Origin: an uncultured Acidobacteriota bacterium
GTDB lineage: Bacteria > Acidobacteriota > Terriglobia > Terriglobales > Acidobacteriaceae
DNA: 64,000 nucleotides
Reading direction: 5' to 3'
Assembly (NCBI GenBank): GCA_963732315.1
Contig: CAVSYY010000012.1
Span: 1,399-65,398, forward strand
Under the pieces are notes generated by a model that saw only the letters and a program-made list of their open reading frames with translations, had not been told where the DNA came from and searched no databases. Position 1 is the stretch's first letter. Each line of letters opens with the position of its first letter. Both the position numbers and the translations under genes were made by a program. Shown piece by piece: positions 28,421-54,730 of the stretch.

Positions 28421-28497
28421 CGGGATGTGGCTCAGCCTGGTAGAGCACTCGCTTGGGGTGCGAGGGGTCGGCAGTTCAAATCTGCCCATCCCGACCA
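28421..28497 (+). tRNA. tRNA-Pro (anticodon GGG)
   Basis: 77 nt folded by hand. Acceptor CGGGATG/CATCCCG, D-arm GCTC/GAGC, anticodon stem CTCGC/GCGAG with loop TTGGGGT, T-arm GGCAG-TTCAAAT-CTGCC, encoded CCA. Confidence 0.9.
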
Positions 28498-36917: not shown

Positions 36918-37748
36918 ATGAGAAGTTCGCCAGAGACGCCGACAACGACGACCAGAACCAGACCGGGACTGCCCGTGGTAAGCAGGAACGAGCGGGAGAT
37001 TCGGAGAATACGCATTCTGCTGGTTCTCCTGGTTTTGATTGAATTGATCTCCGTGGCAGTGCCGAAAAATTCCAGCCTGTGGCGGGTCGAGATCAACGCC
37101 GTCCCGCAACTGCTGATCGGGTTCGTGTTTCTGGTGCTGATTTTCGCTCTGCACCTGGCCTCACAGCACAAATTGCTGGACGAGGTCTCGACGGCGCTGG
37201 TTGCCGCCAACTCGTATGTCAAACGGCTGGAGCAGCTCTCCCTGATTGATCCGCCGACGCAGCTTTTTAACCGGCGCTATCTCGACCAATTGCTTAATCA
37301 GCAATTAAAGTGGCTCTACCGCAGCGGCAAGTCGGCCACATTGTTAATGCTTGAGCTGCTGCCAGTGGGACGGGGAATCGCGGCAGAGGAGATTGTCATC
37401 GAGACGGCGTTTGTTCTGCGCACGAATTTCCGCGGCTCCGACTACGTGGTGCGCTATTCCAACGATCAGTTCCTGGTGGTTCTGCCGGACACGGTCGAGC
37501 AGCAGGCGCAGATTGCCCTGAGCCGGCTGATCGACAAGGTAGACCACTGGAACTTCGCCAACCAGAAATGCGAGATGGCGTTGCGGCTGGAGCTGTGCAC
37601 GTGCCCTCCGGGCGGGAACCTTTGGGAGAAGCTGGGCGAGTTGGAGGAGAGGATGCGGAGCGAATCCGGAGGCCGGACGCTGATTCCACAAAAGCCGGCT
37701 GCAGGCGACGAGAACGATCCTTGCCCTCAGGAACATGTTGTCGAGTAG
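36918..37748 (+). CDS. Membrane-anchored degenerate GGDEF-domain protein (probably catalytically inactive)
   Basis: N-terminal TM helices, then a GGDEF fold entry (DPPTQLFNRRYL). The signature reads RYSNDQF instead of GG(D/E)EF, and the DxD/GHxxGD region is absent. Confidence 0.65.
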   Translation: MRSSPETPTTTTRTRPGLPVVSRNEREIRRIRILLVLLVLIELISVAVPKNSSLWRVEINAVPQLLIGFVFLVLIFALHLASQHKLLDEVSTALVAANSYVKRLEQLSLIDPPTQLFNRRYLDQLLNQQLKWLYRSGKSATLLMLELLPVGRGIAAEEIVIETAFVLRTNFRGSDYVVRYSNDQFLVVLPDTVEQQAQIALSRLIDKVDHWNFANQKCEMALRLELCTCPPGGNLWEKLGELEERMRSESGGRTLIPQKPAAGDENDPCPQEHVVE

Positions 37749-40112: not shown

Positions 40113-41567
40113 GTGCGCCGTTCTGCTTGGATTCAAAATCTGGTTCTGATCGTCATGGTGTCCGGTGCGGTGGCTGGAGCGGCGCAGAAATCTGCTTCCC
40201 AGCTCCCGGCCCCCACGGAAAAGGCCACCGGGGGTGCGGTACGGCACGGCCTGCTGGCGCTGGACGAGGATCTGCAGGCGCTGGCCGAGCGGATTGGGCC
40301 GTCCGTGGTGACGATCGACATCACCGGATTGACGACGGTGGAGGACCCGAACACGCGGCAGACAAACTACATTGCCAAGGAGCAGGCGCTGGGCTCCGGT
40401 ATCATCGTCGATCCGACGGGATACATCCTGACCAATAACCATGTGGTGGAGCATGCGACTTCGATCTCGGTGCTGGTGTACCGCCGGCGCAACAAGCCGG
40501 GCGGCGGGCTGGAAGAAGGCCAGCGCTTCCCGGCGACGCTGGTGGGGCGCGACTCGCTGACCGACCTTGCGCTGCTGAAAGTGACCGCCGATGGACTGCC
40601 TGCATTGACCCTGGCCGACTCCGACAATGTGCACGTGGGCCAGCTTTGCCTGGCCTTCGGCAGCCCGCTGGGGCTGGAGAACACGGTAACGCTGGGCGTA
40701 ATCAGCTCGACGCGGCGACAGCTCAACAGCGCCGCTCCGGTGGTGTATCTGCAGACCGACGCGGCCATCAATCCGGGAAATTCGGGCGGACCACTGGTGG
40801 ACATCAAGGGCGAGGTCATCGGCATGAACACCATGATCGCCTCGCAATCGGGCGGCAGCGAGGGCGTGGGGTTTTCGATTCCCTCCAACACCATCCGCCT
40901 GGTGTATGAACAGTTGCGCGAGCACGGTCACGTCCGCCGGGGGGCGATCGGCATCATTGCCCGCGACATCACTCCCGCGCTGGCCAGCGGGCTGGGCATT
41001 AAGCAGCAGTCCGGAGTGATTCTGGAAGACGTGGTTCCGGGTTCCTCCGCCGACCGCTCCGGGCTGCATCCGGGAGATATTGTTTTGAGCGTGGACGGCA
41101 AGTCTTTTCCGGATCCGCGGGCGTTGTCCGTGCTGCTCTTCCAGAAAAAAGTCGGCGATCTGGCGGTGTTCACGATTCAGCGCGGCACGGAGGTGATGAC
41201 CTTCAAGGTCCCGGTCACCGAGCGCGAAGGCGATCCGGAGAGCATTCTCGATCCGACTCACTCGGAGGGCAACATTATTCCCAAGCTGGGGATTGTGGGG
41301 GTGCAGATTACGGAATCGGTGGCGAAGTTAATTCCTCCGACGCGCCTTCCAGGAGGCATTCTGGTGACGGCGCTGACGGCGGGCGGCAACGCATCGCTGT
41401 TCGGTCTGGAGCCCGGCGATATTCTGCACGCTCTGAACCGCACGCCACTGGATTCGCTGGAGACGCTGCGCAAGGTGCTCTCCGATCTGAAGCCCGGCGA
41501 TCCGGTGGTGCTCAGCATTGAACGTGGGGGACAGCTGAACTACACCGCGTTTGATAATCCGGAATAG
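40113..41567 (+). CDS. HtrA/DegP-family periplasmic serine protease with two PDZ domains
   Basis: Catalytic triad context TNNHVV, DLALLKV, GNSGGPLVD. GTG start at 40113 with AAGAGGA upstream. N-terminal signal/anchor. Confidence 0.9.
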   Translation: MRRSAWIQNLVLIVMVSGAVAGAAQKSASQLPAPTEKATGGAVRHGLLALDEDLQALAERIGPSVVTIDITGLTTVEDPNTRQTNYIAKEQALGSGIIVDPTGYILTNNHVVEHATSISVLVYRRRNKPGGGLEEGQRFPATLVGRDSLTDLALLKVTADGLPALTLADSDNVHVGQLCLAFGSPLGLENTVTLGVISSTRRQLNSAAPVVYLQTDAAINPGNSGGPLVDIKGEVIGMNTMIASQSGGSEGVGFSIPSNTIRLVYEQLREHGHVRRGAIGIIARDITPALASGLGIKQQSGVILEDVVPGSSADRSGLHPGDIVLSVDGKSFPDPRALSVLLFQKKVGDLAVFTIQRGTEVMTFKVPVTEREGDPESILDPTHSEGNIIPKLGIVGVQITESVAKLIPPTRLPGGILVTALTAGGNASLFGLEPGDILHALNRTPLDSLETLRKVLSDLKPGDPVVLSIERGGQLNYTAFDNPE

Positions 41568-41594: not shown

Positions 41595-41810
41595 TCACTG
41601 ACTCTGGCTAGTTTCAGGGGAGTCTGGGCTGGTTTCTGGTTTATCCTGCACCAGCTCTGCGGCCGAGCAAATGGAAAGGGCCATGCCGCCGAGCACCAAG
41701 AGGACGCCAATCAGCGGCTTTGCCGTCAAGCCGAACAACCCGGCAAGCAGCGCCGAGTATCCGGCCAGCAATACGCCTACACTGACTGTCCTCCTGCGCC
41801 TCACACTCAT
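41595..41810 (-). CDS. Small two-TM membrane protein (hypothetical)
   Basis: 71 aa with two hydrophobic helices after an Arg-rich N-terminus. No homology recognised. Could be spurious. Confidence 0.3.
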   Translation of the reverse strand: MSVRRRRTVSVGVLLAGYSALLAGLFGLTAKPLIGVLLVLGGMALSICSAAELVQDKPETSPDSPETSQSQ

Positions 41811-42319: not shown

Positions 42320-45300
42320 ATGGGAATTCGCGTCGCGCTTCATCACAAGACAGTTTATGAATACGACCGGCTGGTCACGCTTTCGCCGCAGGTCGTGCGC
42401 CTTCGTCCGGCGCCGCACAGCCGGACGCACATCTCCAGCTACTCGCTTCGCGTGCAACCGGAAGAGCACTTCATCAACTGGCAGCAGGACCCGCAGGGCA
42501 ATTTCCTGGCCCGCCTGGTCTTCCAGAACCCGACGCGCTTCTTTTCGGTGGAAGTGGATCTGGTGGCCGAGATGGCGGTCCTCAATCCCTTCGATTTTTT
42601 TCTGGAGACGGAGTACGAGAAGTTCCCATTTCGCTATGGGAGCGGGGACCGGCACGAGCTGGGGCTGTTTCTGGAGGCGCCACCGCCCGGTCCGCGGCTG
42701 AAGGCACTCCTGGCCACCGTCGACCGGCGGGAGATGCGGACCATCGACTTTCTGGTCGGCCTCAACGCACGGTTAAACCGGGAGATCCGCTATGTGGTGC
42801 GGATGGAGCCCGGGGTGCAGACCTCGGAGGAGACGCTCAAGTTGGCCAGCGGCTCCTGCCGCGACTCGGCGTGGCTGCTGGTGCAAATCCTGCGGCAGCT
42901 GGGATTGGCGGCGCGCTTTGTCTCCGGGTATCTGATTCAGCTGAAGCCGGACGTGAAACCGCTGGAGGGTCCGGTGGGGCCGTCGGAGGACTTCACCGAT
43001 CTCCACGCCTGGGCCGAGGTGTACCTGCCCGGAGCGGGCTGGATCGGCCTGGACCCGACTTCGGGACTGTTTGCCGGGGAGGGACATATCCCGCTGGCGG
43101 GCACACCGGAGCCGGGATCGGCTGCGCCGGTCACCGGCCTGGTAAGCCCCTGCGAAGTCGAGTTTCAGCATGAAATGAAAGTCACCCGCATCCACGAGGA
43201 CCCGCGGGTGACCAAGCCGTACACGGACGAGGAGTGGCAGCGGATCTACGAGCTGGGAGAGCGGATCGATGCCGACCTAACGGCCAGCGACGTGCGGCTC
43301 ACCATGGGCGGCGAGCCAACCTTCGTCTCGGTGGACGACATGGACGGCGACGAATGGAATACGGAGGCGATGGGGCCAAACAAGCGCCGCCTGGCCGACG
43401 ATCTGCTGGTTCGGCTGCGCGACAAGTTCGCGCCCGGCGCCCTGCTGCACTTCGGACAGGGTAAGTGGTATCCCGGCGAATCCCTGCCGCGCTGGGCGCT
43501 TACCTGCTACTGGCGCAGCGATGGCTTTGCGCTCTGGCGCGACCCGCAGTGGCAGGCATCCCCCGACCGCAACTATGGATTCGGCCGCGAAGAGGCGTTG
43601 CAATTTGCCGAGGCACTTTCAGAGCGGCTGAAGGTCGATTCCGAGGCGGTGGTGGCGGCCTACGAGGACCCGCTCGCCTTTCTCCTCAAGGAGCGCCAGC
43701 TTCCGGTCAACGTCGATCCGCTGGAGAACAAACTGGAGAGCGCCGAGGAGCGCGAGCGGCTGCGGCGCGTCTTCGAGCGCGGCCTCGGCAATCCCGTCGG
43801 GTTTGTATTGCCTCTGCAGCGCGGCTGGGGCAAGAACGGACCGGAGTGGCAGACCAGTTTGTGGATGCTCCGAGCCCGGCATATTTTTCTTATTCCTGGG
43901 GATTCTCCGGTGGGATTCCGTCTGCCGCTGGAATCACTTCTCTGGGAGCCGGCTGGAGAGAGGCAGCAGCCGTGGCAGGTCGATCCGCTTGGCCCAGCCT
44001 CACCGTTGCCACCTCCGCCCAAGCCGTTTGATTCCTGGGTCCGGGGGTACGGGGTTCAGGCGCAACAGCGCGGGCGGCAGAGTAATTCGCCGTATTCCTA
44101 CACCCAGCTTGGGCCGGTGGTGCGTACGGCTCTGACGGTGGAAGCGCGGGGGGGAGTTCTCTATCTGTTCCTGCCGCCGCTCAACTCGGCGGAGGATTTC
44201 GTCGATCTGGTGGCCTCGATTGAGGACACGGCGGCCAAGCTCAAGATGCCGGTCTGCATCGAAGGCTACCCGCCGCCCTTCGACTGGCGCGTGCGGATGC
44301 TCAAGGTCACGCCGGACCCCGGCGTCATCGAGGTGAACATCCAGCCCTCCGCCAGCTGGCGCGAGCTTGCCGAAAACACCACGACGCTCTACGAGCAGGC
44401 GCGGCTGAGCCGCCTGGGCACGGAAAAATTCATGCTGGATGGCCGCCACACCGGCACCGGCGGCGGTAACCACATGGTGCTGGGCGGTCCGACCCCGGCC
44501 GACAGCCCGTTTCTGCGCCGTCCCGACCTGCTGAAGAGCCTGGTGGGCTACTGGCTGAATCATCCCTCGCTCTCCTACCTGTTCTCGGGCACCTTTATCG
44601 GGCCCACCAGTCAGGCACCGCGAGTGGACGAAACCCGCGCCGATGCGATCTATGAGCTGGAGATCGCGTTTAACCAGCTCAAAGACGCCAATCCGTACGG
44701 GCTTCCGCTGTGGCTGGTGGACCGGCTCTTCCGCAATCTTCTGGTCGATGTGACCGGCAATACGCATCGCGCCGAGTTCTGCATCGACAAGCTGTATTCT
44801 CCCGACAGCGCGACGGGACGGCTGGGACTGCTGGAGCTGCGCGCCTTTGAGATGCCTCCCCATGCGCGCATGAGCCTGGCCCAGCAGCTGCTGCTGCGCT
44901 CGCTGGTGGCTCGCTTCTGGCGCTGGCCCTACGAGGAGACTCCGATCCGCTGGGGTACGCGGCTGCACGATATGTTTCTGCTGCCATACTTTGTGGAAAA
45001 GGATTTCCGCTGGGTCATCTCGGAGTTGCAGCAGGCGGGTTACGAATTTGAATCCGAGTGGTTCGATCCGCACAAGGAGTTCCGCTTCCCGGTCTTCGGG
45101 CGGGTCTGTTATGAGGGCGTTGAGGTCGAGCTCCGGCAGGCGATCGAGCCGTGGAATGTGCTGGGCGAGGAACCTGGCACCGGCGGGACGACCCGTTTTG
45201 TGGATTCGTCGGTGGAGCGCATTCAGGTGCGGGTGCGCGGCCTGGTGAGCGAGCGCTACGCGGTTACCTGCAACGGCCGTCGGCTGCCGCTGCATCCCAC

Positions 45301-45646
45301 CGGGACGAATGGTGAGTTTGTCTGCGGCGTGCGCTATCGCGCGTGGCAGCCGCCGCGCTGCCTGCATCCCACCATTCCGGTGCATACGCCGCTGGTGTTC
45401 GATGTGGTCAATCTTGCGGCGGGACGTTCGGTGGGTGGATGCACCTACCACGTGGCGCATCCCGGCGGGCGAAGCTATGATACGATCCCGGTTAACTCGA
45501 ACGAGGCTGAGGCTCGCCGTATGGCGCGCTTCTTTGCCTTCGGGCACACGCCGGGGCCTATGATTGTGCCACCGGTCGAAGAAAATCCAGAGTTTCCGCT
45601 GACGCTGGATCTGCGGCGTGCGGCGAGCACCGGGGTGAGACGTTAG
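42320..45646 (+). CDS. Large transglutaminase-fold protein (N-terminal transglutaminase core + DUF2126-like body)
   Basis: 1108 aa. Cys-His-Asp papain-like triad context (SGSCRDSAWLLVQILRQLGLAARFVSGYL ... DLHAWAEVYLPGAGWIGLDPTSG). About 800 aa of conserved uncharacterised C-terminal region. Confidence 0.85.
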   Translation: MGIRVALHHKTVYEYDRLVTLSPQVVRLRPAPHSRTHISSYSLRVQPEEHFINWQQDPQGNFLARLVFQNPTRFFSVEVDLVAEMAVLNPFDFFLETEYEKFPFRYGSGDRHELGLFLEAPPPGPRLKALLATVDRREMRTIDFLVGLNARLNREIRYVVRMEPGVQTSEETLKLASGSCRDSAWLLVQILRQLGLAARFVSGYLIQLKPDVKPLEGPVGPSEDFTDLHAWAEVYLPGAGWIGLDPTSGLFAGEGHIPLAGTPEPGSAAPVTGLVSPCEVEFQHEMKVTRIHEDPRVTKPYTDEEWQRIYELGERIDADLTASDVRLTMGGEPTFVSVDDMDGDEWNTEAMGPNKRRLADDLLVRLRDKFAPGALLHFGQGKWYPGESLPRWALTCYWRSDGFALWRDPQWQASPDRNYGFGREEALQFAEALSERLKVDSEAVVAAYEDPLAFLLKERQLPVNVDPLENKLESAEERERLRRVFERGLGNPVGFVLPLQRGWGKNGPEWQTSLWMLRARHIFLIPGDSPVGFRLPLESLLWEPAGERQQPWQVDPLGPASPLPPPPKPFDSWVRGYGVQAQQRGRQSNSPYSYTQLGPVVRTALTVEARGGVLYLFLPPLNSAEDFVDLVASIEDTAAKLKMPVCIEGYPPPFDWRVRMLKVTPDPGVIEVNIQPSASWRELAENTTTLYEQARLSRLGTEKFMLDGRHTGTGGGNHMVLGGPTPADSPFLRRPDLLKSLVGYWLNHPSLSYLFSGTFIGPTSQAPRVDETRADAIYELEIAFNQLKDANPYGLPLWLVDRLFRNLLVDVTGNTHRAEFCIDKLYSPDSATGRLGLLELRAFEMPPHARMSLAQQLLLRSLVARFWRWPYEETPIRWGTRLHDMFLLPYFVEKDFRWVISELQQAGYEFESEWFDPHKEFRFPVFGRVCYEGVEVELRQAIEPWNVLGEEPGTGGTTRFVDSSVERIQVRVRGLVSERYAVTCNGRRLPLHPTGTNGEFVCGVRYRAWQPPRCLHPTIPVHTPLVFDVVNLAAGRSVGGCTYHVAHPGGRSYDTIPVNSNEAEARRMARFFAFGHTPGPMIVPPVEENPEFPLTLDLRRAASTGVRR

Positions 45647-45749
45647 GGGGAGTCCGCTGGCCAATAGTCGTGGGAACGGGAGCTCGGCGGCGACGCGCCG
45701 GAACGATTGGAAATATACCGGTGTCGAGGGGCACTGGGACGAGGTTCTA

Positions 45750-48203
45750 ATGCCTTCCGGTCTGCCGCGCCGCCACTGGAGGGCGCTCACGGCCGCCATG
45801 GGACGGCAGGGCCCGGAGGAGTTGAGCCGCGCCTGGCAGATCGGCCAGCAGCTTTTGCGCGCCAACGGCACCTCCTACAACGTAGGTGGAGACCTGAACG
45901 GGAGCGAACGCTCCTGGCCGCTGGATCCGCTCCCGATGGTGATCGAAGAGCACGAGTGGGCGCAGATCGAAGCAGCGGTCATTCAGCGGGCCACGCTGCT
46001 CAATGCCATGATGGCCGACTTTTACGGCCCGCAGCGTCTGCTGCATGAACGGCAGATTCCCCCGGCGCTGCTGCTGGCGAACCCGCAATTTTTGCGTGCC
46101 TGCCACGGCATCGAACCCCGCAATGGCGTCTTTCTGCATTCCTACGCGGCGGACATGGCGCGCTCTCCCGATGGCCGCTGGCAAATCACCTCCGACCGGA
46201 CGCAGGCGCCTTCGGGACTGGGCTACACGCTGGAAAACCGGCTGGTGAGCGCCCGCAGTCTAAGCAGCGTCTTCAGCACCTGCCAGGTGCGCCAACTGGC
46301 GCGCTTTTTCGACATTAGACGGGACGCGCTGCTAAATCTGGCGGCAAGCCAACAGCATAATCCTCGTGTCGTGCTGCTCACCTCCGGGCCGCACAGCGAG
46401 ACGTATTTCGAGCATTCGTTCCTGGCCGGCCACTGGGGCTTCCCGCTGGTGGAAGGCGCCGATCTGGCGGTGCGCGACAACCGAGTTTATCTGAAGACGC
46501 TCACCGGACTCGACCCCGTGGATATCATTGTGCGACGTCTCGACGACGTCTTCTGTGATCCGATTGAATTTCGCGGCGACTCGCTGCTGGGCGTGCCGGG
46601 ACTGGTGCAGGCGGTGCGCAGCGGCAGCGTGGTGATTGACAATGCGCTGGGCAGCGGAGTGCTGGAGGCCCCCGGATTCCTGGCGTTTCTTCCTGGAATC
46701 TGCCGTCATCTGCTGGGGGAGGAGTTGCGGATGCCGTCGGTCTCCACCTGGTGGTGCGGCGAGGAGGACGCCCGCAATTATGTGCTGGAACATCTTGACG
46801 AGTTGGTGATCCGGCCCAGTTTTCCGCGCTCGCACCGGCAGACGGAGACGCCGGCCGCGATGGATGCGGCCAAGCGGGAAGAACTGATCGGCCGGATCCA
46901 GGCGCAGCCGGAGCGGTTCGTGGCCCAGGAACAGGTGGCGCTCTCCACCGTGCCGGTGTACACCGAGAGCGGACTGGAGACCCGGCATGTCGTGCTCAGG
47001 GCCTTTGCCGCATGGGATGGAAGCTCCTACACGGTGCTGCCCGGCGGGTTGACCCGGGTCTCACGCGAGGCCTGGTCGCCGGCGGTTTCCCTGCACGACG
47101 GAGGTGGCACCAAGGATACCTGGGTGCCCGGCGGCTCGGGCGAGCCGGTTGCCGTATCGCGTCCGGCGCTGGGGCCGATCGCGGCTCATCCCAGCTGGTC
47201 GAATCTTCCCAGCCGGGTTGCCGACAACCTTTTCTGGCTGGGCCGCTATGCCGAGCGCCTCGAAGACCGGGTGCGCCTGGTGCGGGCCCTGCTGCCGGCG
47301 CTCTCCGGCGAAGAGGATTTTGGCCGCACCGCCACGCTGGAGTCGGTGGTCCGCTTACTGACCGGGCTGAAGTATCTGCCGCCGGAGGTCTCCCGCGCCG
47401 CCCTGGGAGAACAGCTATGGCAGGTGCAGCGGCTGCTGCCCAAAATGGTTCGCGATGAGAGCCGGCCCACCAGCCTGGGATGGACCCTGAAGCAGATGCG
47501 CCGGGTTGCCCTGAACCTGAAGGAACGCCTTTCGGCAGATACCTGGCGTGTGTTGCAGCAGATTGAAAACGATTTTTCGGAGGATATTCCCACCTCCGCC
47601 GGCCCCCGCTATGTGGCTGAGATAAATCTGCTCGACAAGGCGATTGTGACGCTCTCAGCCTTTGTCGGCCTGGTGATGGAGAATACGACGCGGGGCCCGG
47701 GATGGCATTTCCTGGAGATCGGCCGGCGAGTGGAGCGCGCCCGTCACATGGCGCACCTGTTGGAGGCGGGAGTGGCGCAGGCACCGGAGGAAATCGAACC
47801 GTATCTCCGCATCCTGCTCTACATCGCGGATAGCTCCATTACGTACCGCACCCGCTACCTGACCGCTCTGCGCACCGATCTGGTGCTGGATCTGCTGCTG
47901 GTGGACGAATCCAATCCGCGTTCCATCGGCTTTCAATTGGCCTCGCTGCTCAGCCATCTCGAGAAACTTCCGGAGCATGACCACGCGGTCTGCGATTCTG
48001 AAAAGGCGTTGGTCGCCAAAGCCATCCATGCGGTTCGCGTGGCGCCGATGGCAGAGCTCTCGCGCAGAGACAAGTTTGGCCGCATGGGTGCGCTGACCGA
48101 GCTTCTGGAGCAGCTGAAAGACGACATGTACGATCTATCGGATGCGCTGGCCTCGCACTATCTGAGTCCGGTCGTCTCCTCGCGCTTCGTATCGTCCCGG
48201 TGA
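45750..48203 (+). CDS. Fused circularly permuted type-2 ATP-grasp + alpha-E domain protein
   Basis: 817 aa. The N-terminal half matches the CP ATP-grasp pattern (RRHWRAL, NGTSYNV, WPLDPLPMVIEEHEWAQIEAAVIQRATLLNAMMADFYGPQ, VLLTSGPHSETYFEHSFLAGHWGFPLVEG). The C-terminal ~310 aa is alpha-E-like (NLFWLGRYAERLE, GWHFLEIGRRVERA, ITYRTRY). Conserved residues continue upstream of the first ATG, so the start is uncertain. Confidence 0.8.
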   Translation: MPSGLPRRHWRALTAAMGRQGPEELSRAWQIGQQLLRANGTSYNVGGDLNGSERSWPLDPLPMVIEEHEWAQIEAAVIQRATLLNAMMADFYGPQRLLHERQIPPALLLANPQFLRACHGIEPRNGVFLHSYAADMARSPDGRWQITSDRTQAPSGLGYTLENRLVSARSLSSVFSTCQVRQLARFFDIRRDALLNLAASQQHNPRVVLLTSGPHSETYFEHSFLAGHWGFPLVEGADLAVRDNRVYLKTLTGLDPVDIIVRRLDDVFCDPIEFRGDSLLGVPGLVQAVRSGSVVIDNALGSGVLEAPGFLAFLPGICRHLLGEELRMPSVSTWWCGEEDARNYVLEHLDELVIRPSFPRSHRQTETPAAMDAAKREELIGRIQAQPERFVAQEQVALSTVPVYTESGLETRHVVLRAFAAWDGSSYTVLPGGLTRVSREAWSPAVSLHDGGGTKDTWVPGGSGEPVAVSRPALGPIAAHPSWSNLPSRVADNLFWLGRYAERLEDRVRLVRALLPALSGEEDFGRTATLESVVRLLTGLKYLPPEVSRAALGEQLWQVQRLLPKMVRDESRPTSLGWTLKQMRRVALNLKERLSADTWRVLQQIENDFSEDIPTSAGPRYVAEINLLDKAIVTLSAFVGLVMENTTRGPGWHFLEIGRRVERARHMAHLLEAGVAQAPEEIEPYLRILLYIADSSITYRTRYLTALRTDLVLDLLLVDESNPRSIGFQLASLLSHLEKLPEHDHAVCDSEKALVAKAIHAVRVAPMAELSRRDKFGRMGALTELLEQLKDDMYDLSDALASHYLSPVVSSRFVSSR

Positions 48204-48210
48204 GCATCGC

Positions 48211-49098
48211 ATGATCTACTCGGCTACCCACATTACGCGCCACATTTATCAATCGCCGGTTTCCCAGTCTCTCAACGAGCTGCGGCTCACTCCGCGCTCA
48301 CTGCCGGGGCAGCAGGTGCTGGAGGCGAACATCTGCATCGAGCCCGAGCCTGCCACCTGGCAAAGCCGCAAGGACTACTTCGGCAACGAGGTAATCACGG
48401 TCGGTGTCTATGAGCCGCACAGCCGTTTCGTGATTGAAGCCAAGAGTGTGGTGGAGGTGGAGGCGCCATCATTGGACGCGCTTTCTCCCATGTCCTGGGA
48501 GCAGGCGCGCGACCTGATTGCTGCACATCCTGACGATGAATCGCTGGCGGCGCTGGAATTCGTTTACGATTCTCCATTCATCGCCGCTGCCGACGAACTG
48601 GCGGAGTATGCACGGCCGAGCTTTCCTCCGGGACGCCCGCTGGCGGAGGCGCTGCTCGAGCTCTCGCATCGCATCTACACCGAATTCAAATACAAGCCGA
48701 ACTCAACTTCCATTGAAATGCCCCTGCTCGAAGTGTTGGGAAACCGCCAGGGCGTCTGCCAGGACTTTGCGCACGTGATGATCGGCGCGCTGCGGTCGTT
48801 GCGTCTGCCGGCCCGCTACACCAGCGGATACCTGCGCAGCAGTCCCGGCAGCCATGGCGCCGAGGCCTCGCACGCGTGGGTTGCCGCGTTTGTCCCAGGA
48901 AGCGGGTGGTTGAGCTACGACCCCACCAACGACGTGATGCCCACCGACCGCCACCTGACGTTGGCCTGGGGCCGGGACTACGGGGATGTGACACCGGTCA
49001 AGGGTGTTGCCGTAGGGGGAGGCTCCCACAGCGTGGAGGTCGAGGTGATGGTAAAGGCGATGGAAAGCAACGAAACCGCCGGCCCGGTAGCGGACTGA
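48211..49098 (+). CDS. Transglutaminase-like cysteine peptidase-fold protein (bacterial transglutaminase N-domain + core)
   Basis: 295 aa. GVCQDFAHVMIGALRSLRLPARYTSGYL ... SHAWVAAFVPGSGWLSYDPTN (Cys-His-Asp). Starts 8 nt after the preceding gene. Confidence 0.85.
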   Translation: MIYSATHITRHIYQSPVSQSLNELRLTPRSLPGQQVLEANICIEPEPATWQSRKDYFGNEVITVGVYEPHSRFVIEAKSVVEVEAPSLDALSPMSWEQARDLIAAHPDDESLAALEFVYDSPFIAAADELAEYARPSFPPGRPLAEALLELSHRIYTEFKYKPNSTSIEMPLLEVLGNRQGVCQDFAHVMIGALRSLRLPARYTSGYLRSSPGSHGAEASHAWVAAFVPGSGWLSYDPTNDVMPTDRHLTLAWGRDYGDVTPVKGVAVGGGSHSVEVEVMVKAMESNETAGPVAD

Positions 49099-49106
49099 GT
49101 AAGAGG

Positions 49107-49150
49107 AAAAAAGCCAGGGCGTCCGGCGTATCCGGGCGCCCTGGCCTTTT
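49107..49150. terminator. Bidirectional intrinsic terminator between convergent genes
   Basis: A6-GCCAGGGCG-(TCCGGCGTATCCGGG)-CGCCCTGGC-CTTTT, a 9-bp GC-rich stem with an A-run and a T-run on either side. Confidence 0.6.
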
Positions 49151-49171: not shown

Positions 49172-51920
49172 CTAAAGCTCGATATCTCCGTGGGCGAGTT
49201 CACCGCCGGTTTCCGTGACCCGGAAGCCGAGTTTCCTGCAGATGTGGTGCATCTCCTGGTCTTCTGCAAGCATGTTGCAGTGCACGTGTTTCAATCCTTC
49301 ATCGCGGGCCACTTCCAGAGCGCGGCGGAACAGGTCCGTGCCCAGTCCCTTGCCCTGGTAGTCATCGCGGATGATGACCGCGGTGTAGGCGGAGTTGGTG
49401 CCGTGCTGCTTGCTCATGCGGCTGACTCCGACAATCTCCGGCGAGCCCTTCCCATTTCTGGTCTCGGCTACCAGCGCCATCTGGCGGTCGTAGTCGATGA
49501 AGCAGATGTGGGTGAGGCGCTCGTGCGCGGTGCGCTGCCGCAGGTTCATGGGTTGGAAGTAGCGCTTGGTAACCGTGCGCTCGCTCAGCTTCTCGTGGAA
49601 TTTGACGATCGCGGGCTCGTCCTCCGGGCGGATCGGACGGACCGAAAGGACCTCGCCGTCTTCCAAGGTCATGGAGCCAACGTACTGGATCGGATAGGGA
49701 CGGATAGCAGTCTTGGGCAGCTTGTCCTCCGTCATCTCCGGCCCGTGCACCACCACGCGCGCGTCCAGCGCCAGCAAGCGCTCGGGCGAAGCCAGCAGAG
49801 GATTGATGTCGATCTCCTTGATCCAGGGCTGCTCGACCACCAGGTGGCTGAAGCGGACCAGCAGATCTTCCAGGGCCGCCAGATCGACGGCTTTGCGGCC
49901 GCGCACGCCCTTGAGCGCTTCGTAGACCTTGGTGTGCTCCATCATGCGGCGGGCCAGGGTACTGTTGAGCGGCGGCAGGCCCAGCGCGCTGTCCTTGTAA
50001 ACCTCGACCAGCTGACCGCCGGAGCCGAACAGAAGCACCGGGCCGAACTGCGGATCGAGCGAGGAGCCGAGGATGACTTCGTATCCTTCCAGCTTTGCCA
50101 TGGGCTGCACGGTGACGCCCAGGAAGTGGCCTTCGCCGGCCTTCTCGCGCACCGAGTCTCTCGATCTGCTTATACGATGTCCGGACCGCTTCAGCATTGC
50201 GGACATTGAGTTGCACGCCGCCTACGTCGGTCTTGTGGGTGATGGTCTCCGAGTGCAGCTTGAGCACCACCGGGTAGCCGATCTCGTCGGCGGCCTTGAC
50301 CGCTTCCTCCGCGGTGTGGGCAATGCGGGTCTCGGTAACCGGGATGCCGTAGGCCTTCAACAGCTCTTTCGACTCGAACTCGGTCAGGATGGTGCGGCCG
50401 GTCTGGCGCACGTGCTGAATGAGTTCGGAGGCTTTCTCGCGATCGATCTGAGCCGATTCCGGCTTCACGTCCGGCGTCTCGTACAGAGACTTCAGGTTCC
50501 TGGCGTACTGCCACATATAGTTAAACGCTGCGCAGGCAGCATCCGGATAGGCGAAGGTTGGAATGCCGGCGCGGTTCAGAATCTGTTCGCCATAGGAGAC
50601 CATCGAACCGCCCATCCAACTTGCCAGGAAGGGCTTGCCAAGGGAATTGGCATAAGGGCGCAGGTTCTCGGCGATACTGGTCGGGTCGGTCATGCCTTGC
50701 GGCGTCATGATGACGAGAATGCCGTCAGTTTCCGGGTCCTGCGCCGCGACTTCCAGCGCCTTGGCGTAGCGGTCCGGTTCGGCGTCGCCGAGAATGTCGA
50801 CGGGGTTGCCATGGCTCCATGCGAAGGGTAGGAACTCGTTGTACTTTGCCATCGCCTCCGGTGACACCTTGGAGAGTTTGCCGCCGCCTTTGGAGAGCGC
50901 GTCGGTCGCCAGCACGCCGGGACCGCCGGCATTGGTGACGATGCAAAGGCGATTGCCCTTGGGACGCGGCTGCTTGGCCAGCACCTCGGACATATTGAAT
51001 AGGTCCTGGATGGAATCGACGCGCAGCACGCCGGCGCGCTGGAAAGCGGCGTCCAACACGCCGTCGCTGCCGGTCAGCGAACCGGTGTGCGAGGCGGCGG
51101 CCTTGGCGGCCTCGGCAGTGCGTCCCGCCTTGATGACGATGATCGGCTTCTTCATGGAAACTTCGCGCGCGGCGCTGAGGAAGCTGCGCGGATCGCCGAT
51201 CGACTCCATGTAGGCCACGATCGAAGTGGTATGCGGATCGGTGCCGAAGTATGTAATCAGGTCGCCCCAGTCCACGTCCAGCATGGAACCGATGGAGATA
51301 AAGGTGCTGAAGCCGACCATCGCCTTGTAGGACCAGTCCAGTACAGCGGTACAGAGCGCGCCGCTCTGGCTGATGAAGGCAAGATTTCCAGGCCGCGCCA
51401 CGGTATGCGCGAAAGTGGCATTAAAACCGGTGAGTGGGTTCATCACGCCGAGGCAGTTAGGGCCAATCAAGCGCATCTTGCCCCGGATCGCTTCCTTGAT
51501 CTGGCGCTCGTACTCCACTCCCTTTTCACCTATTTCCTTGAATCCGGCGGAGATGACGATAGCCGCAGGAACTCCGAGGCCTACGGCATCCCGGATCAGC
51601 TCAGGGACGCCATCCGAGGGCGTGGTGACCACGATGCAATCGGGCCGCTCGGGAAGGTCATGAAGATTCTTGTAGGCGTGAATACCGAGGATGTTATCGC
51701 GCTTGGAGTTGACCGGGTAAACGGTGCCGCCGAACGGTGAGCCGATCATGTTGCTTAGGACCATGCGTCCCACACTGCCCACGCGGTCGGTGGCTCCAAT
51801 CAGGGCGACGGACTTGGGCTTAAACACCGCGTCCAGCGGAAGAGTATCAGGTCGTAGAAGGTCATGTGCCGGGTCAATGAGAAGCGCGGCATCGGGGCTA
51901 GGAGCTTTCAGCATAGTCAT
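49172..51920 (-). pseudogene. Pat-like bifunctional NDP-forming acyl-CoA synthetase / GNAT protein-lysine acetyltransferase, frame broken by one extra base
   Basis: The N-terminal frame (49362..51920 ORF) is genuine up to ...[13 protein letters not shown] and then becomes Arg/Pro/Gly junk. The genuine sequence resumes in the +1 frame (49172..50206 ORF) at ...[19 protein letters not shown] through a C-terminal GNAT domain. The junction lies in a GAGAGAC context at about 50153-50162. Confidence 0.8.
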
Positions 51921-52282: not shown

Positions 52283-53683
52283 CTAAGCCGCGATGCGGAA
52301 ATCCTCTGCGTCCGTGGCGACGGGGTTATGCCAGCCTCCGGTCAGCGAAATTTTCTGGTCGACCTCACTCGGCCCCCAGGTGCCTGGCTCGTATTCATAA
52401 ATGGGAGAGTTGGCCTTTAATACCGGATCGACGATTCGCCATGCTTCCTCCACGTAATCCTGCCGGGCAAACAGAGTGGGATCTCCTGCCATGGCCTCGC
52501 CCAGCACTCGCTCATAGGCTTCCATCTCCTCCGGACGGGGATGGCGGCTGGCCACCATCTCGATGGTCTCGCCTTTCATAGCCTCGCCGGGAGTCATAAC
52601 CATGGCGCCCATGGCGATCGTCATCTCGGGACTGATCCGGAATCGCAGATAGTTTTGCGTCAAAGCACTCTCGCTAATGACTGCGGGCGGCTTGCGTAAA
52701 CGGCCGAGAATCTCCGTACAGGTCACAGGCAGGTTCTTGCCCGCGCGAATGTAGAACGGAACTCCCTTCCAGCGCCAGGAATCAAGCTCCAGCCGCAGTG
52801 CGGCGAAGGTTTCCGTCTTCGAATTGGTTGCAACGCCCTTTTCCTGAAGGTAGCCGCGGAACTGCCCGCGGACGAGATGTTCCGCTTCCAGCGGTGGAAT
52901 CGATTTCAATACCTTCACCTTCTCGTCGCGAATGCTCTCACTGTCCGTGCGGACGGCAGGCTCCATGGCCAGGTTGCAGAGGATTTGAAAGAGATGATTC
53001 TGGATCACGTCGCGAATCGTGCCGACTTCATCATAGAAGGCGCCGCGTCCCTGCACTCCGAAATCTTCCGCCATGGTGATCTGCACGCTTTCGATGTAGT
53101 TGCGATTCCAGAACGGTTCCATGAACGCATTGGCGAAGCGGAAGAACACCACATTGTTCACGGGTCGCTTGCCAAGATAGTGGTCGATGCGGAAGATTGC
53201 GGACTCGGGAAAGGCCGAGTGCAAGATCCGGTTCAGCTCCTGCGCAGAAGCGAGATCACGGCCGAAGGGCTTCTCGACGATGACACGGGCACCCTGCGCG
53301 CAGCCCGCGTTCGCAAGTTGTTTTACCACGGTTTCGAACAAGAGGGGTGGGATAGCCAGATAATGCGCCGGGTGTTGGGCTCCCTTGAGTTCGCCGCGGA
53401 GCGCCTGAAAAGTTGTCGGGTCCGCGTAGTCGCCGTCCACGTAACGCAGTAAGCCGCTCAGCTTATCGAATGCCGCGGCATCAACCCCGCCGTGTTTTTC
53501 CAGGCTGTCGTGCGCTCGCGCCCGAAGCTGTTCCAGGTTCCAGCCGGCCTTGGCGACGCCGATGACAGGCACGTCAAGGTGGCCGCGCTTCAGCATGGCC
53601 TGCAGCGCAGGGAAGATCTTCTTGTAGGCCAGATCGCCCGTGGCGCCGAAGAAGACCAGAGCATCGGCATGTGGATTCGTCAT
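52283..53683 (-). CDS. zwf: Glucose-6-phosphate dehydrogenase
   Basis: [24 protein letters not shown], and the [16 protein letters not shown] region. Confidence 0.9.
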
Positions 53684-53695
53684 TGGTTCACTCCT

Positions 53696-54730
53696 TTACG
53701 CGGCCTCTGTCTTGTCCTTCGGTTTTTCCAGGTGTCCGCCGAAGCCGAAGCGCATCGCCGAGAGCAACTTGTCCGGGTAATCCGCCTCACCGCGCGAGCT
53801 GAAGCGCTGGTAAAGCGCGGCGGAGAGAACCGGCGCCGGCACCGCCTCGTCGATTGCCGCCTTGATCGTCCACCGGCCTTCGCCCGAGTCCGAAACACGC
53901 CCGCTGAACTGGGAGAGATTGGGATCGTTCACCAGACTGGCCGCGGTCAGGTCCAGCAGCCACGATGCGATTACGCTGCCGCGCCGCCATACTTCCGCAA
54001 TGTCGCGCAAATCGAGGTCAAACTGATAATGCTCGGGGTCGCGCAGCGGCGTCGTTTCTGCGTCAGCCGCATGCTGCTGCCTGCCCACGTTGGCGCCGCG
54101 CAAGATGCCCAAGCCCTCGGCGTAGGCAGCCATGAGACCGTACTCGATGCCGTTGTGGACCATCTTGACGAAGTGTCCGGCGCCGCTGGCGCCGCAGTGC
54201 AGGTAACCCTGTTCGGCAGTGCCGTCCAACTTTTCCCGCCCCGGCGTGCGCGGCGCGTCACCGGCGCCGGGCGCCAGCGTGGCGAAAATCGGATCGAGAT
54301 GGCGAACCACGTTCTGTTCGCCGCCGATCATCATGCAGTAGCCGCGCTCCAAGCCCCACACGCCGCCGCTGGTCCCCACGTCCACGTAGTGAATGCTCCT
54401 GGCCGCCAGCTCTTTGGCACGCCGAATGTCATCCACGTAATAGGAATTGCCGCCATCGATGAGGATGTCTTCCGGGTCAAGATGAGGCACCAGGGCCGCG
54501 ATGGTGGTGTCCACGACCGCTGCTGGAACCATCAACCAAATCGCCCGAGGCTTCTCCAGCTTGGTCACGAAATCCTGCAGCGAAGAGCTGCCCGTCGCAT
54601 TCTCCTTGACCATCTCATTCACTGCTGCCGGCGACATATCGAATACCGCGCACTGATGGCCGCCCTTCAGGAGCCGCCGAACCATGTTGGCCCCCATTCT
54701 TCCCAGCCCAACCATTCCAAGTTGCATCAC
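53696..54730 (-). CDS. gnd: 6-phosphogluconate dehydrogenase, decarboxylating (short form)
   Basis: [20 protein letters not shown] Rossmann start. [29 protein letters not shown]. Confidence 0.9.

Follow-up and report, generated by a model that had tools for sequence, protein, structure and literature searches.

A conserved putative amidoligase and transglutaminase-like gene cluster of the Rv2566/Rv2567 type in an uncultured acidobacterium

Introduction

A widespread bacterial system that pairs putative ATP-dependent amide ligases with transglutaminase-like (TGL) domains was flagged computationally in 2008-2009. The three-gene cluster described here is a routine copy of it, located at positions 42320-49098 of a 64,000-nucleotide stretch of DNA (the window; positions 1,399 to 65,398 of contig CAVSYY010000012.1, assembly GCA_963732315.1) from an uncultured acidobacterium of the family Acidobacteriaceae. 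The genes encode a transglutaminase (TGase) module fused to DUF2126 (gene 1), a circularly permuted ATP-grasp ligase fused to an Alpha-E domain (gene 2), and a stand-alone TGase-like protein (gene 3). The Rv2566 family of Mycobacterium tuberculosis was described as a TGL domain combined with a carboxylate-amine ligase (Iyer et al., 2008; PMC2588565), and three later papers cite Iyer et al. (2009) for an ATP-grasp/Alpha-E/TGL system (PMC6376114, PMC5666114, PMC3495828). A preliminary description of the window had pointed to a 2009 amidoligase survey by the Aravind group. This link holds, directly through the 2008 paper and, for the 2009 paper, through those that cite it. In such systems the predicted role of the TGL domains is to reverse tags that the ATP-grasp enzyme adds (PMC3495828). 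Rv2566 has the architecture of gene 1 and belongs to the COG4196/DUF2126 family; it is uncharacterised, as is Rv2567. We take Rv2567 (P9WL97) to be the fused ATP-grasp/Alpha-E partner in M. tuberculosis. Rv2567 and Rv2411c do not synthesise GABA (γ-aminobutyric acid)-trehalose (bioRxiv 10.64898/2026.04.15.718621).

The same triad of ATP-grasp, Alpha-E and TGL, with the same predicted peptide-ligase logic, is found in the Anbu operon of Pseudomonas, Yersinia and cyanobacteria. However, that operon also encodes Anbu, an N-terminal nucleophile (Ntn) hydrolase that is proteasome beta-like, whereas the window cluster has the TGase-DUF2126 giant in place of an Anbu gene and carries ATP-grasp and Alpha-E in one polypeptide. 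No Anbu gene adjoins the window cluster, and no further conserved neighbour family was found in the 81 loci compared below. The homologous ATP-grasp of the Yersinia Anbu operon releases inorganic phosphate from ATP; no complexes of the Anbu-operon proteins and no Anbu peptidase activity were detected (PMC6376114).

Several better-known enzymes share parts of this design. Escherichia coli glutathionylspermidine synthetase/amidase (GspSA; PDB 2io7) holds in one polypeptide an ATP-dependent amide ligase and a papain-like cysteine amidase that act on the same bond. Its amidase is a CHAP domain on an ATP-grasp-like synthetase, whereas in the cluster a transglutaminase-like domain is attached to the other ligase (DUF2126), and there is no evidence for glutathione or polyamines as substrates of the cluster. 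Two-step glutathione synthesis employs the same pair of ligase folds, a gamma-glutamylcysteine ligase of the glutamine synthetase (GS) fold and an ATP-grasp glutathione synthetase, of which the eukaryotic enzyme is a circularly permuted form. Of the structural matches of gene 2 with a known function, eukaryotic glutathione synthetases rank best (E ~1e-9), yet they share only 11-14% sequence identity with it. Furthermore, DUF2126 is about twice the size of the GshA/GCS2 enzymes, and glutathione synthesis requires neither thiol amidases nor Alpha-E, both of which are present in the cluster.

In the PafA/Dop (Pup) and TTL/vasohibin (tubulin) systems, a tag with an amide linkage is attached by a ligase and removed by a hydrolase. 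Both PafA and Dop are GS-like (PMC2588565), and the pair formed by TTL (ATP-grasp) and vasohibin (a TGL peptidase) served Zhang and Aravind as an analogy (PMC3495828). The homology of the cluster to both systems is at the level of the fold only; no conserved Pup-like small open reading frame (ORF) lies near the cluster, and a target protein is only hypothetical. Cross-linking transglutaminases (e.g., TgpA, PDB 6g49) have their fold and catalytic triad in common with the TGases of the cluster, in which transamidase activity itself is only putative.

Among bacterial enzyme systems without a known product, this is one of the largest and most broadly conserved, and its chemistry could bring to light a novel metabolite, or a novel reversible modification of proteins, connected with nitrogen starvation. 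The copy in the window, from an uncultured acidobacterium, adds little by itself and is no more testable than those of Pseudomonas, Burkholderia or mycobacteria. The analysis contributes a corrected parts list (two putative ligases, two putative thiol amidases and Alpha-E), an invariant three-gene core, a second ATP-grasp/Alpha-E pair that frequently accompanies it, and a probable connection to sigma-54 and NtrC.

Domain architecture and active sites

The three plus-strand ORFs extend over 42320-45646 (gene 1, 1108 amino acids (aa)), 45750-48203 (gene 2, 817 aa when read from its ATG) and 48211-49098 (gene 3, 295 aa). The earlier domain assignments were borne out by very strong Pfam matches to Bact_transglu_N, Transglut_core, CP_ATPgrasp_2, Alpha-E and DUF2126, while none of the three proteins is covered by an NCBIfam model.

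Gene 1 begins with a TGase module (42335-43057) composed of Bact_transglu_N (aa 6-84, E = 1e-24) and Transglut_core (aa 134-246, E = 2e-15). Alignment places its catalytic triad at C180 (42857-42859), H229 (43004-43006) and D245 (43052-43054), and these residues are invariant in two sets of sequences, 60 homologues from databases and 82 derived from genomes. A Foldseek search with the gene 1 model matched the TGase-like structure 3isr (E 1e-7). The remainder of the protein, about 800 aa that had been left unassigned in the preliminary description, is a full-length DUF2126 domain (PF09899, 'putative amidoligase'; aa 277-1099, positions 43148-45616), which matches profile positions 2-826 of 826 with E = 0 and 1330 bits. 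Thus, the cluster holds two putative ATP-dependent ligases, since DUF2126 is a putative carboxylate-amine (GS-like) ligase. The earlier view of an uncharacterised enzymatic system with two thiol enzymes stands, but its single ligase has to be replaced by two.

Across the whole gene 1 protein, 197 of the 1108 positions are invariant in the 82 sequences. In DUF2126 they include acidic, histidine and arginine residues within the motifs GGEPTF (E332), IEVN (E671/N673), GTGGGNH (H718), NTHRAEF (H816/R817/E819) and LELRAFE (E839/R841). By eye, the order of these motifs parallels that of GPEPEFF, HHEV, GSGMHCH and IEVRFPD in E. coli GlnA (a reference sequence checked by its match to PDB 7w85, residues 1-469, 1077 bits), with GGEPTF paired to GPEPEFF, GGGNH to GSGMHCH and LELRAFE to IEVRFPD. 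The GS-like ligase assignment of DUF2126 is published (Iyer et al., 2008) and is carried by the Pfam family name; it is plausible, though weakly supported and not confirmed here. More than 8000 homologues of gene 1 share the same three Pfam domains. The closest protein, 98% identical, comes from a metagenome-assembled genome (MAG) of Candidatus Korobacteraceae (Acidobacteriota) and is named 'transglutaminase family protein'. Some public records (P0314, P0344) call DUF2126 proteins 'IMP dehydrogenase', apparently a misannotation that has been propagated.

Gene 2 matches CP_ATPgrasp_2 over aa 62-438 (45933-47063; E = 1.6e-147) and Alpha-E (PF04168) over aa 486-805 (47205-48164; E = 4e-67). Its closest solved relative is the structural-genomics circularly permuted ATP-grasp protein 3n6x, found by sequence (2e-87) and also by Foldseek, which matched it to the N-terminal half of the gene 2 model (E 3e-27, template modelling (TM) score 0.80); the mean predicted local distance difference test score (pLDDT) of the model was 73. 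Further Foldseek matches of the ligase half were eukaryotic glutathione and homoglutathione synthetases (E 1e-9 to 1e-6), Cp1B, the ATP-grasp ligase of fungal E-64 synthesis (E 3e-8), and E. coli GspSA (E 1e-5). The characterised structural relatives are all small-molecule ligases that act via acyl-phosphates, and the modelled ligase half closely resembles in structure the glutathione-synthetase/glutathionylspermidine-synthetase class of ATP-grasp enzymes. The all-helical Alpha-E half gave no significant Foldseek match in the PDB; its motifs GRYxER (G498-R499-Y-x-E-R503) and GRRxER (G658-R659-R-x-E662-R663) are conserved.

Gene 3 comprises Bact_transglu_N (E = 2.5e-23) and Transglut_core (E = 9e-18), and is a paralogue of the gene 1 TGase module (31% identity). 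Its triad of C183 (48757-48759), H221 (48871-48873) and D237 (48919-48921) aligns to the Cys, His and Asp of the solved TGase-like structures 3isr and 6g49 and is conserved in at least 97% of 61 sequences. The intact Cys-His-Asp triads claimed earlier for both flanking proteins are therefore present. Inspection of the N-termini revealed no signal peptide in the gene 1 or gene 3 protein.

Operon structure and the start of gene 2

The genes are followed by a bidirectional intrinsic terminator at 49113-49145, which serves both strands between gene 3 and a convergent Pat-like gene. A terminator scan showed a hairpin with a 14-bp stem, 12 G-C pairs and U-tracts on either strand, with folding energies of -37.4 and -40.7 kcal/mol on its two strands (z-scores -5.9 and -5.2). 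The co-directional arrangement, coordinates and strong terminator reported before are confirmed, and the three tightly packed genes and their terminator very probably form one operon.

The intergenic gaps had been given as 103 and 7 nucleotides (nt). The second is correct; the first depends on ATG 45750 as the start of gene 2, which is doubtful. Most gene 2 homologues are ~840-848 aa long, with 846 aa the commonest length, and have a conserved N-terminal segment, W-x-Y-x-x-x-E-G-H-W-D-E. In the window, this segment is encoded in frame immediately 5' of the ATG (...RRNDWKYTGVEGHWDEVL-M...), within a probable 5' extension of gene 2 on the plus strand at 45657-45749 that was recognised from the translation and from homologue N-termini. 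There is no in-frame ATG, GTG or TTG between ATG 45750 and the upstream stop at 45636-45638. CTG 45657 is preceded by a Shine-Dalgarno-like GGGGGAG at 45646-45652. In the relative with the 98% identical gene 1 product, the position of ATG 45750 is ACG, and there gene callers shortened the gene 2 protein to 793 aa. The same relative retains CTG 45657 and the upstream frame, and about half of its few changes in this region are synonymous (alignment read by eye). Thus, judged from the sequence, gene 2 most likely starts at the non-canonical CTG 45657, which would give a protein of 848 aa and reduce the gap between genes 1 and 2 from 103 to about 10 nt. Gaps of about 10 and 7 nt would suggest, rather than prove, translational coupling.

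Conservation across genomes

A pattern scan of one genome per species identified more than 598 confirmed relatives, of which the best 80 were fetched. The cluster is thus found in at least ~600 sequenced species, including Pseudomonas, Burkholderia, Ralstonia and Serratia. At E <= 1e-30, gene 1 is matched by about 2900 protein clusters (50% identity), some perhaps only through the TGase part. The loci compared in detail are the best-scoring relatives (56-75% identity) and do not form an unbiased sample; more distant members, actinobacterial ones for example, fall outside the 81 loci. Those included span Acidobacteriota, Proteobacteria, Planctomycetota, Verrucomicrobiota and Bacteroidota, with 56-67% identity in gene 1 across the phyla, and the proteobacterial loci come from alpha-, beta-, gamma- and deltaproteobacteria (Pseudomonas, Serratia, Burkholderia, Variovorax, Marinobacter and others).

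Gene order was determined by tblastn mapping in the 69 informative loci, those with 4.2 kb or more of downstream sequence. ATP-grasp and Alpha-E lie directly downstream of that homologue and on the same strand in 61 loci, and in three further loci they are displaced by an insertion. All but one of the 61 downstream genes encode the two domains in a single ORF. The full order of TGase-DUF2126, fused ATP-grasp/Alpha-E and TGase is found in 60/69 loci from at least five phyla. In contrast, the suggestion that the window holds a compact version does not survive: fusion in 60/61 genes and a gene 1 product of ~1100 aa throughout the family make this arrangement the norm.

A second, split ATP-grasp and Alpha-E pair lies near the three-gene core in 33 of the 81 loci (~40%). 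The split pair is 35-37% identical to gene 2 and is sometimes accompanied by a third TGase, which results in five- or six-gene arrays (e.g., L001 5528-14796, L082 2571-13296); one five-gene array belongs to a Bryobacteraceae MAG. The 64-kb window contains no second pair. All-against-all clustering of the flanking ORFs of the 81 loci revealed no other conserved partner gene and no small tag-like ORF. Additional 'families' that recurred near the loci were rejected, being either shadow ORFs on the antisense strand or housekeeping genes of particular lineages (ComEC, a radical SAM protein, azurin). The cluster is located on chromosomes or on megaplasmids/chromids, never on small plasmids. The three genes are the invariant core of the system.

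Regulation and the link to nitrogen

The published NtrC regulon of Burkholderia cenocepacia includes four annotated genes that are most likely this cluster, and membership of the NtrC regulon would link the system to nitrogen limitation. In Burkholderia multivorans, a six-gene array on chromosome 2 (ATP-grasp, (Alpha-E), TGase, TGase-DUF2126, ATP-grasp-Alpha-E, TGase) has a single sigma-54-like site, AGGCACGCTCCTTGCA, ~100 nt upstream of its first gene. This array fits the four-gene annotation of B. cenocepacia, to which it is probably equivalent. Sigma-54-like sites were defined as having at most one mismatch to TGGCAC-N5-TTGCW within 400 nt upstream. Such sites precede the gene 1 homologue by 39-95 nt in 16 of 79 loci (L009, L020, L025, L028, L031, L044, L046, L052, L063, L070-L072, L074-L076 and L078), where ~0.6 would be expected from a background rate of 0.0074 per 400 nt, an enrichment of ~27-fold. 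Three further loci have a site upstream of the split ATP-grasp gene. This enrichment is in line with the reported dependence on NtrC in B. cenocepacia.

Related Anbu-type operons are upregulated under nitrogen limitation in Pseudomonas putida, and domains of the cluster co-vary with urea-metabolism domains in marine metagenomes (PMC3597751). Proteobacterial copies of the system (as distinct from that of the window organism) therefore appear to be part of the sigma-54/NtrC response to nitrogen limitation, which points to a growth condition and to tractable organisms for its study. In the window, Rfam reported no riboswitch or other RNA family upstream of gene 1, and a sigma-70 scan of the same region gave nothing on the plus strand.

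Proposed function and alternatives

The interpretation preferred here, to which we give a probability of roughly 55%, is that the cluster represents a standard amidoligase-transglutaminase-like system of the Rv2566/Rv2567 type, in which the ligases build a conjugate and the papain-fold amidases reverse or process it. The DUF2126 domain (GS/gamma-glutamylcysteine-ligase-like) and the circularly permuted ATP-grasp of gene 2 would each activate a carboxylate as an acyl-phosphate and couple it to an amine. Stepwise assembly is expected given that the same two ligase folds carry out two-step glutathione synthesis, and the product could be a short, probably gamma-glutamyl-type, amide or peptide conjugate, either free or on a conserved cellular protein. 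The two papain-fold TGase-like domains may act as thiol amidases that hydrolyse or transfer the conjugate, the level of which would be set by opposing synthesis and removal. The fusion of a TGase to the first ligase would parallel the amidase of GspSA. Alpha-E is predicted to be an obligate partner of ATP-grasp and may bind or present the substrate.

The small-molecule relatives of the gene 2 ligase favour a metabolite as the product. A reversible protein tag is favoured by the published prediction, the TGase/Bact_transglu_N architecture, the association of a paralogous triad with Anbu, and the extreme conservation. A more specific proposal covers both, and is offered only tentatively: the cluster may make an undescribed, nitrogen-starvation-linked amide conjugate common to many phyla, either a glutathione-like gamma-glutamyl peptide or a reversible protein modification comparable to tubulin-type glutamylation, which two ligases would write and two TGase-like amidases erase, with Alpha-E as a new substrate adaptor.

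Several observations weigh against the amidoligase-transglutaminase-like interpretation. A PDB profile search with a 23-sequence gene 1 family alignment returned TGase matches only, even at E <= 10, and hhalign comparison of a 30-sequence DUF2126-domain alignment with E. coli GlnA gave a probability of 1%, the fetched loci containing no GS-signature protein from which a GS profile could be built. Foldseek ranked a GS-like protein fourth, the 1-naphthylamine gamma-glutamylating enzyme 8x6z, as a weak match (E 0.086, probability 0.72) in a search with the whole 1108-aa model, which dilutes domain matches. The AlphaFold2 model of gene 1 is itself of only moderate confidence (pLDDT 75, predicted TM score 0.72), and it is poor at the TGase active site (pLDDT <50, residues 201-266) and in several DUF2126 motif loops. 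No sigma-54-like site lies upstream of gene 1 in the window, and the selection of loci by score limits what the synteny counts can carry. Full-text literature searches yielded no product, substrate or phenotype for the cluster, as the preliminary description had stated, and the term DUF2126 was absent from all of the roughly 8 million texts covered. Finally, Rv2569c, the putative counterpart of gene 3, was reported to be a secreted protease that cleaves E-cadherin; its conserved domains were said to indicate a cysteine protease, and it was blocked by serine-protease inhibitors but not by E-64 or N-ethylmaleimide (NEM) (PMC11081392). This inhibitor profile is hard to reconcile with the fold and is a misfit for a cytoplasmic thiol amidase; it is uninformative about the chemistry of the operon. 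Unlike gene 3, Rv2569c lies on the opposite strand, judged from the 'c' in its name.

Protein peptide-tagging, taken strictly as Iyer et al. (2009) proposed it, is the alternative that survives best, and is possible although doubtful. The ligases would tag target proteins at side chains or termini with an amino acid or a short peptide, much as in pupylation, RimK or tubulin glutamylation/tyrosination, and the TGL domains would remove this tag, which would single out proteins for turnover in starvation. This is the published prediction for ATP-grasp/Alpha-E/TGL operons, and the related triad adjoins the proteasome-like Anbu in other genomes. TGase-like enzymes with Bact_transglu_N generally act on proteins or peptides, the conservation of gene 1 across phyla is extreme (56-67% identity), as would suit a universal macromolecular target, and induction under nitrogen limitation fits protein turnover. 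However, every one of the closest relatives of the gene 2 ligase with a solved structure ligates small molecules, and no Anbu, protease or AAA+ gene was found in or next to the cluster, in the window or in the 81 loci. The Anbu-operon proteins showed neither a complex nor Anbu peptidase activity, as described above, and no modified protein has been reported.

A nitrogen-scavenging catabolic module appears unlikely. Here, the GS-like and ATP-grasp enzymes would activate or gamma-glutamylate a nitrogen source (an amine or amide) and the thiol amidases would release ammonia or glutamate, on the model of PuuA/PuuD and GlnA-like gamma-glutamylation pathways. The NtrC/sigma-54 dependence in Burkholderia, the enrichment of sigma-54 sites and the co-variation with urea-metabolism domains accord with such a role, as does the sole GS-like Foldseek match, 8x6z, being a gamma-glutamylating enzyme, although that match is weak. 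Piasecka et al. (PMC6376114) also mention ammonia release by a transglutaminase as a possibility. Against this, no catabolic genes (for oxidoreductases, transporters or others) are conserved alongside the cluster, ligating and then hydrolysing one bond would be futile, and two ligases plus Alpha-E exceed the needs of such a pathway.

Natural-product biosynthesis, independent of nonribosomal peptide synthetases (NRPS), of a peptide antibiotic, siderophore or protease inhibitor (like fungal E-64 via Cp1B) is improbable. The gene 2 ligase is structurally similar to Cp1B, and both ATP-grasp and GS-like ligases occur in pathways of this kind. However, the same three genes recur across phyla at 56-67% identity with no conserved exporter, tailoring, resistance or regulator gene, and they reside on chromosomes or chromids rather than small plasmids; such constancy without accessory genes indicates a core physiological function, as opposed to a biosynthetic cluster of the variable kind. 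Anti-phage defence or another conflict role is hardly credible and was rejected on the absence of any PADLOC model matching the three proteins, to which can be added their stable housekeeping-like context with synteny held in a closely related strain and a very high sequence conservation unlike that of fast-evolving defence genes, while nothing specific speaks for it beyond the occurrence of transglutaminase-like and nucleoside triphosphate-dependent enzymes in some conflict systems.

Neighbouring genes

On one side of the cluster lies an HtrA-like protease gene and on the other the convergent Pat-like gene. Neighbours in the window at 40113-41567 (+), 36918-37748 (+), 52283-54730 (-) and 28421-28494 (+) are unrelated housekeeping genes, and the identities assigned among the neighbours are an HtrA/DegP-like protease, a GGDEF protein, glucose-6-phosphate dehydrogenase, 6-phosphogluconate dehydrogenase and a tRNA. 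A small hydrophobic ORF of ~70 aa is located on the minus strand (~41598-41810), within the 750 nt that separate the HtrA-like gene from gene 1. It is also called as a gene of 71-74 aa in two related assemblies (L083, L084), with no Pfam match recorded there.

The Pat-like protein acetyltransferase gene (49172-51920, minus strand; CoA_binding/Succ_CoA_lig/ATP-grasp_5 and GNAT domains) is broken into two frames by an apparent 1-nt frameshift, with the junction near 50157-50160. The break reflects either a pseudogene specific to this strain or a mistake in the assembly. The synteny around the cluster is preserved in a closely related strain, in which the Pat-like gene is intact as a single ORF of 915 aa (L083 15862-18609).

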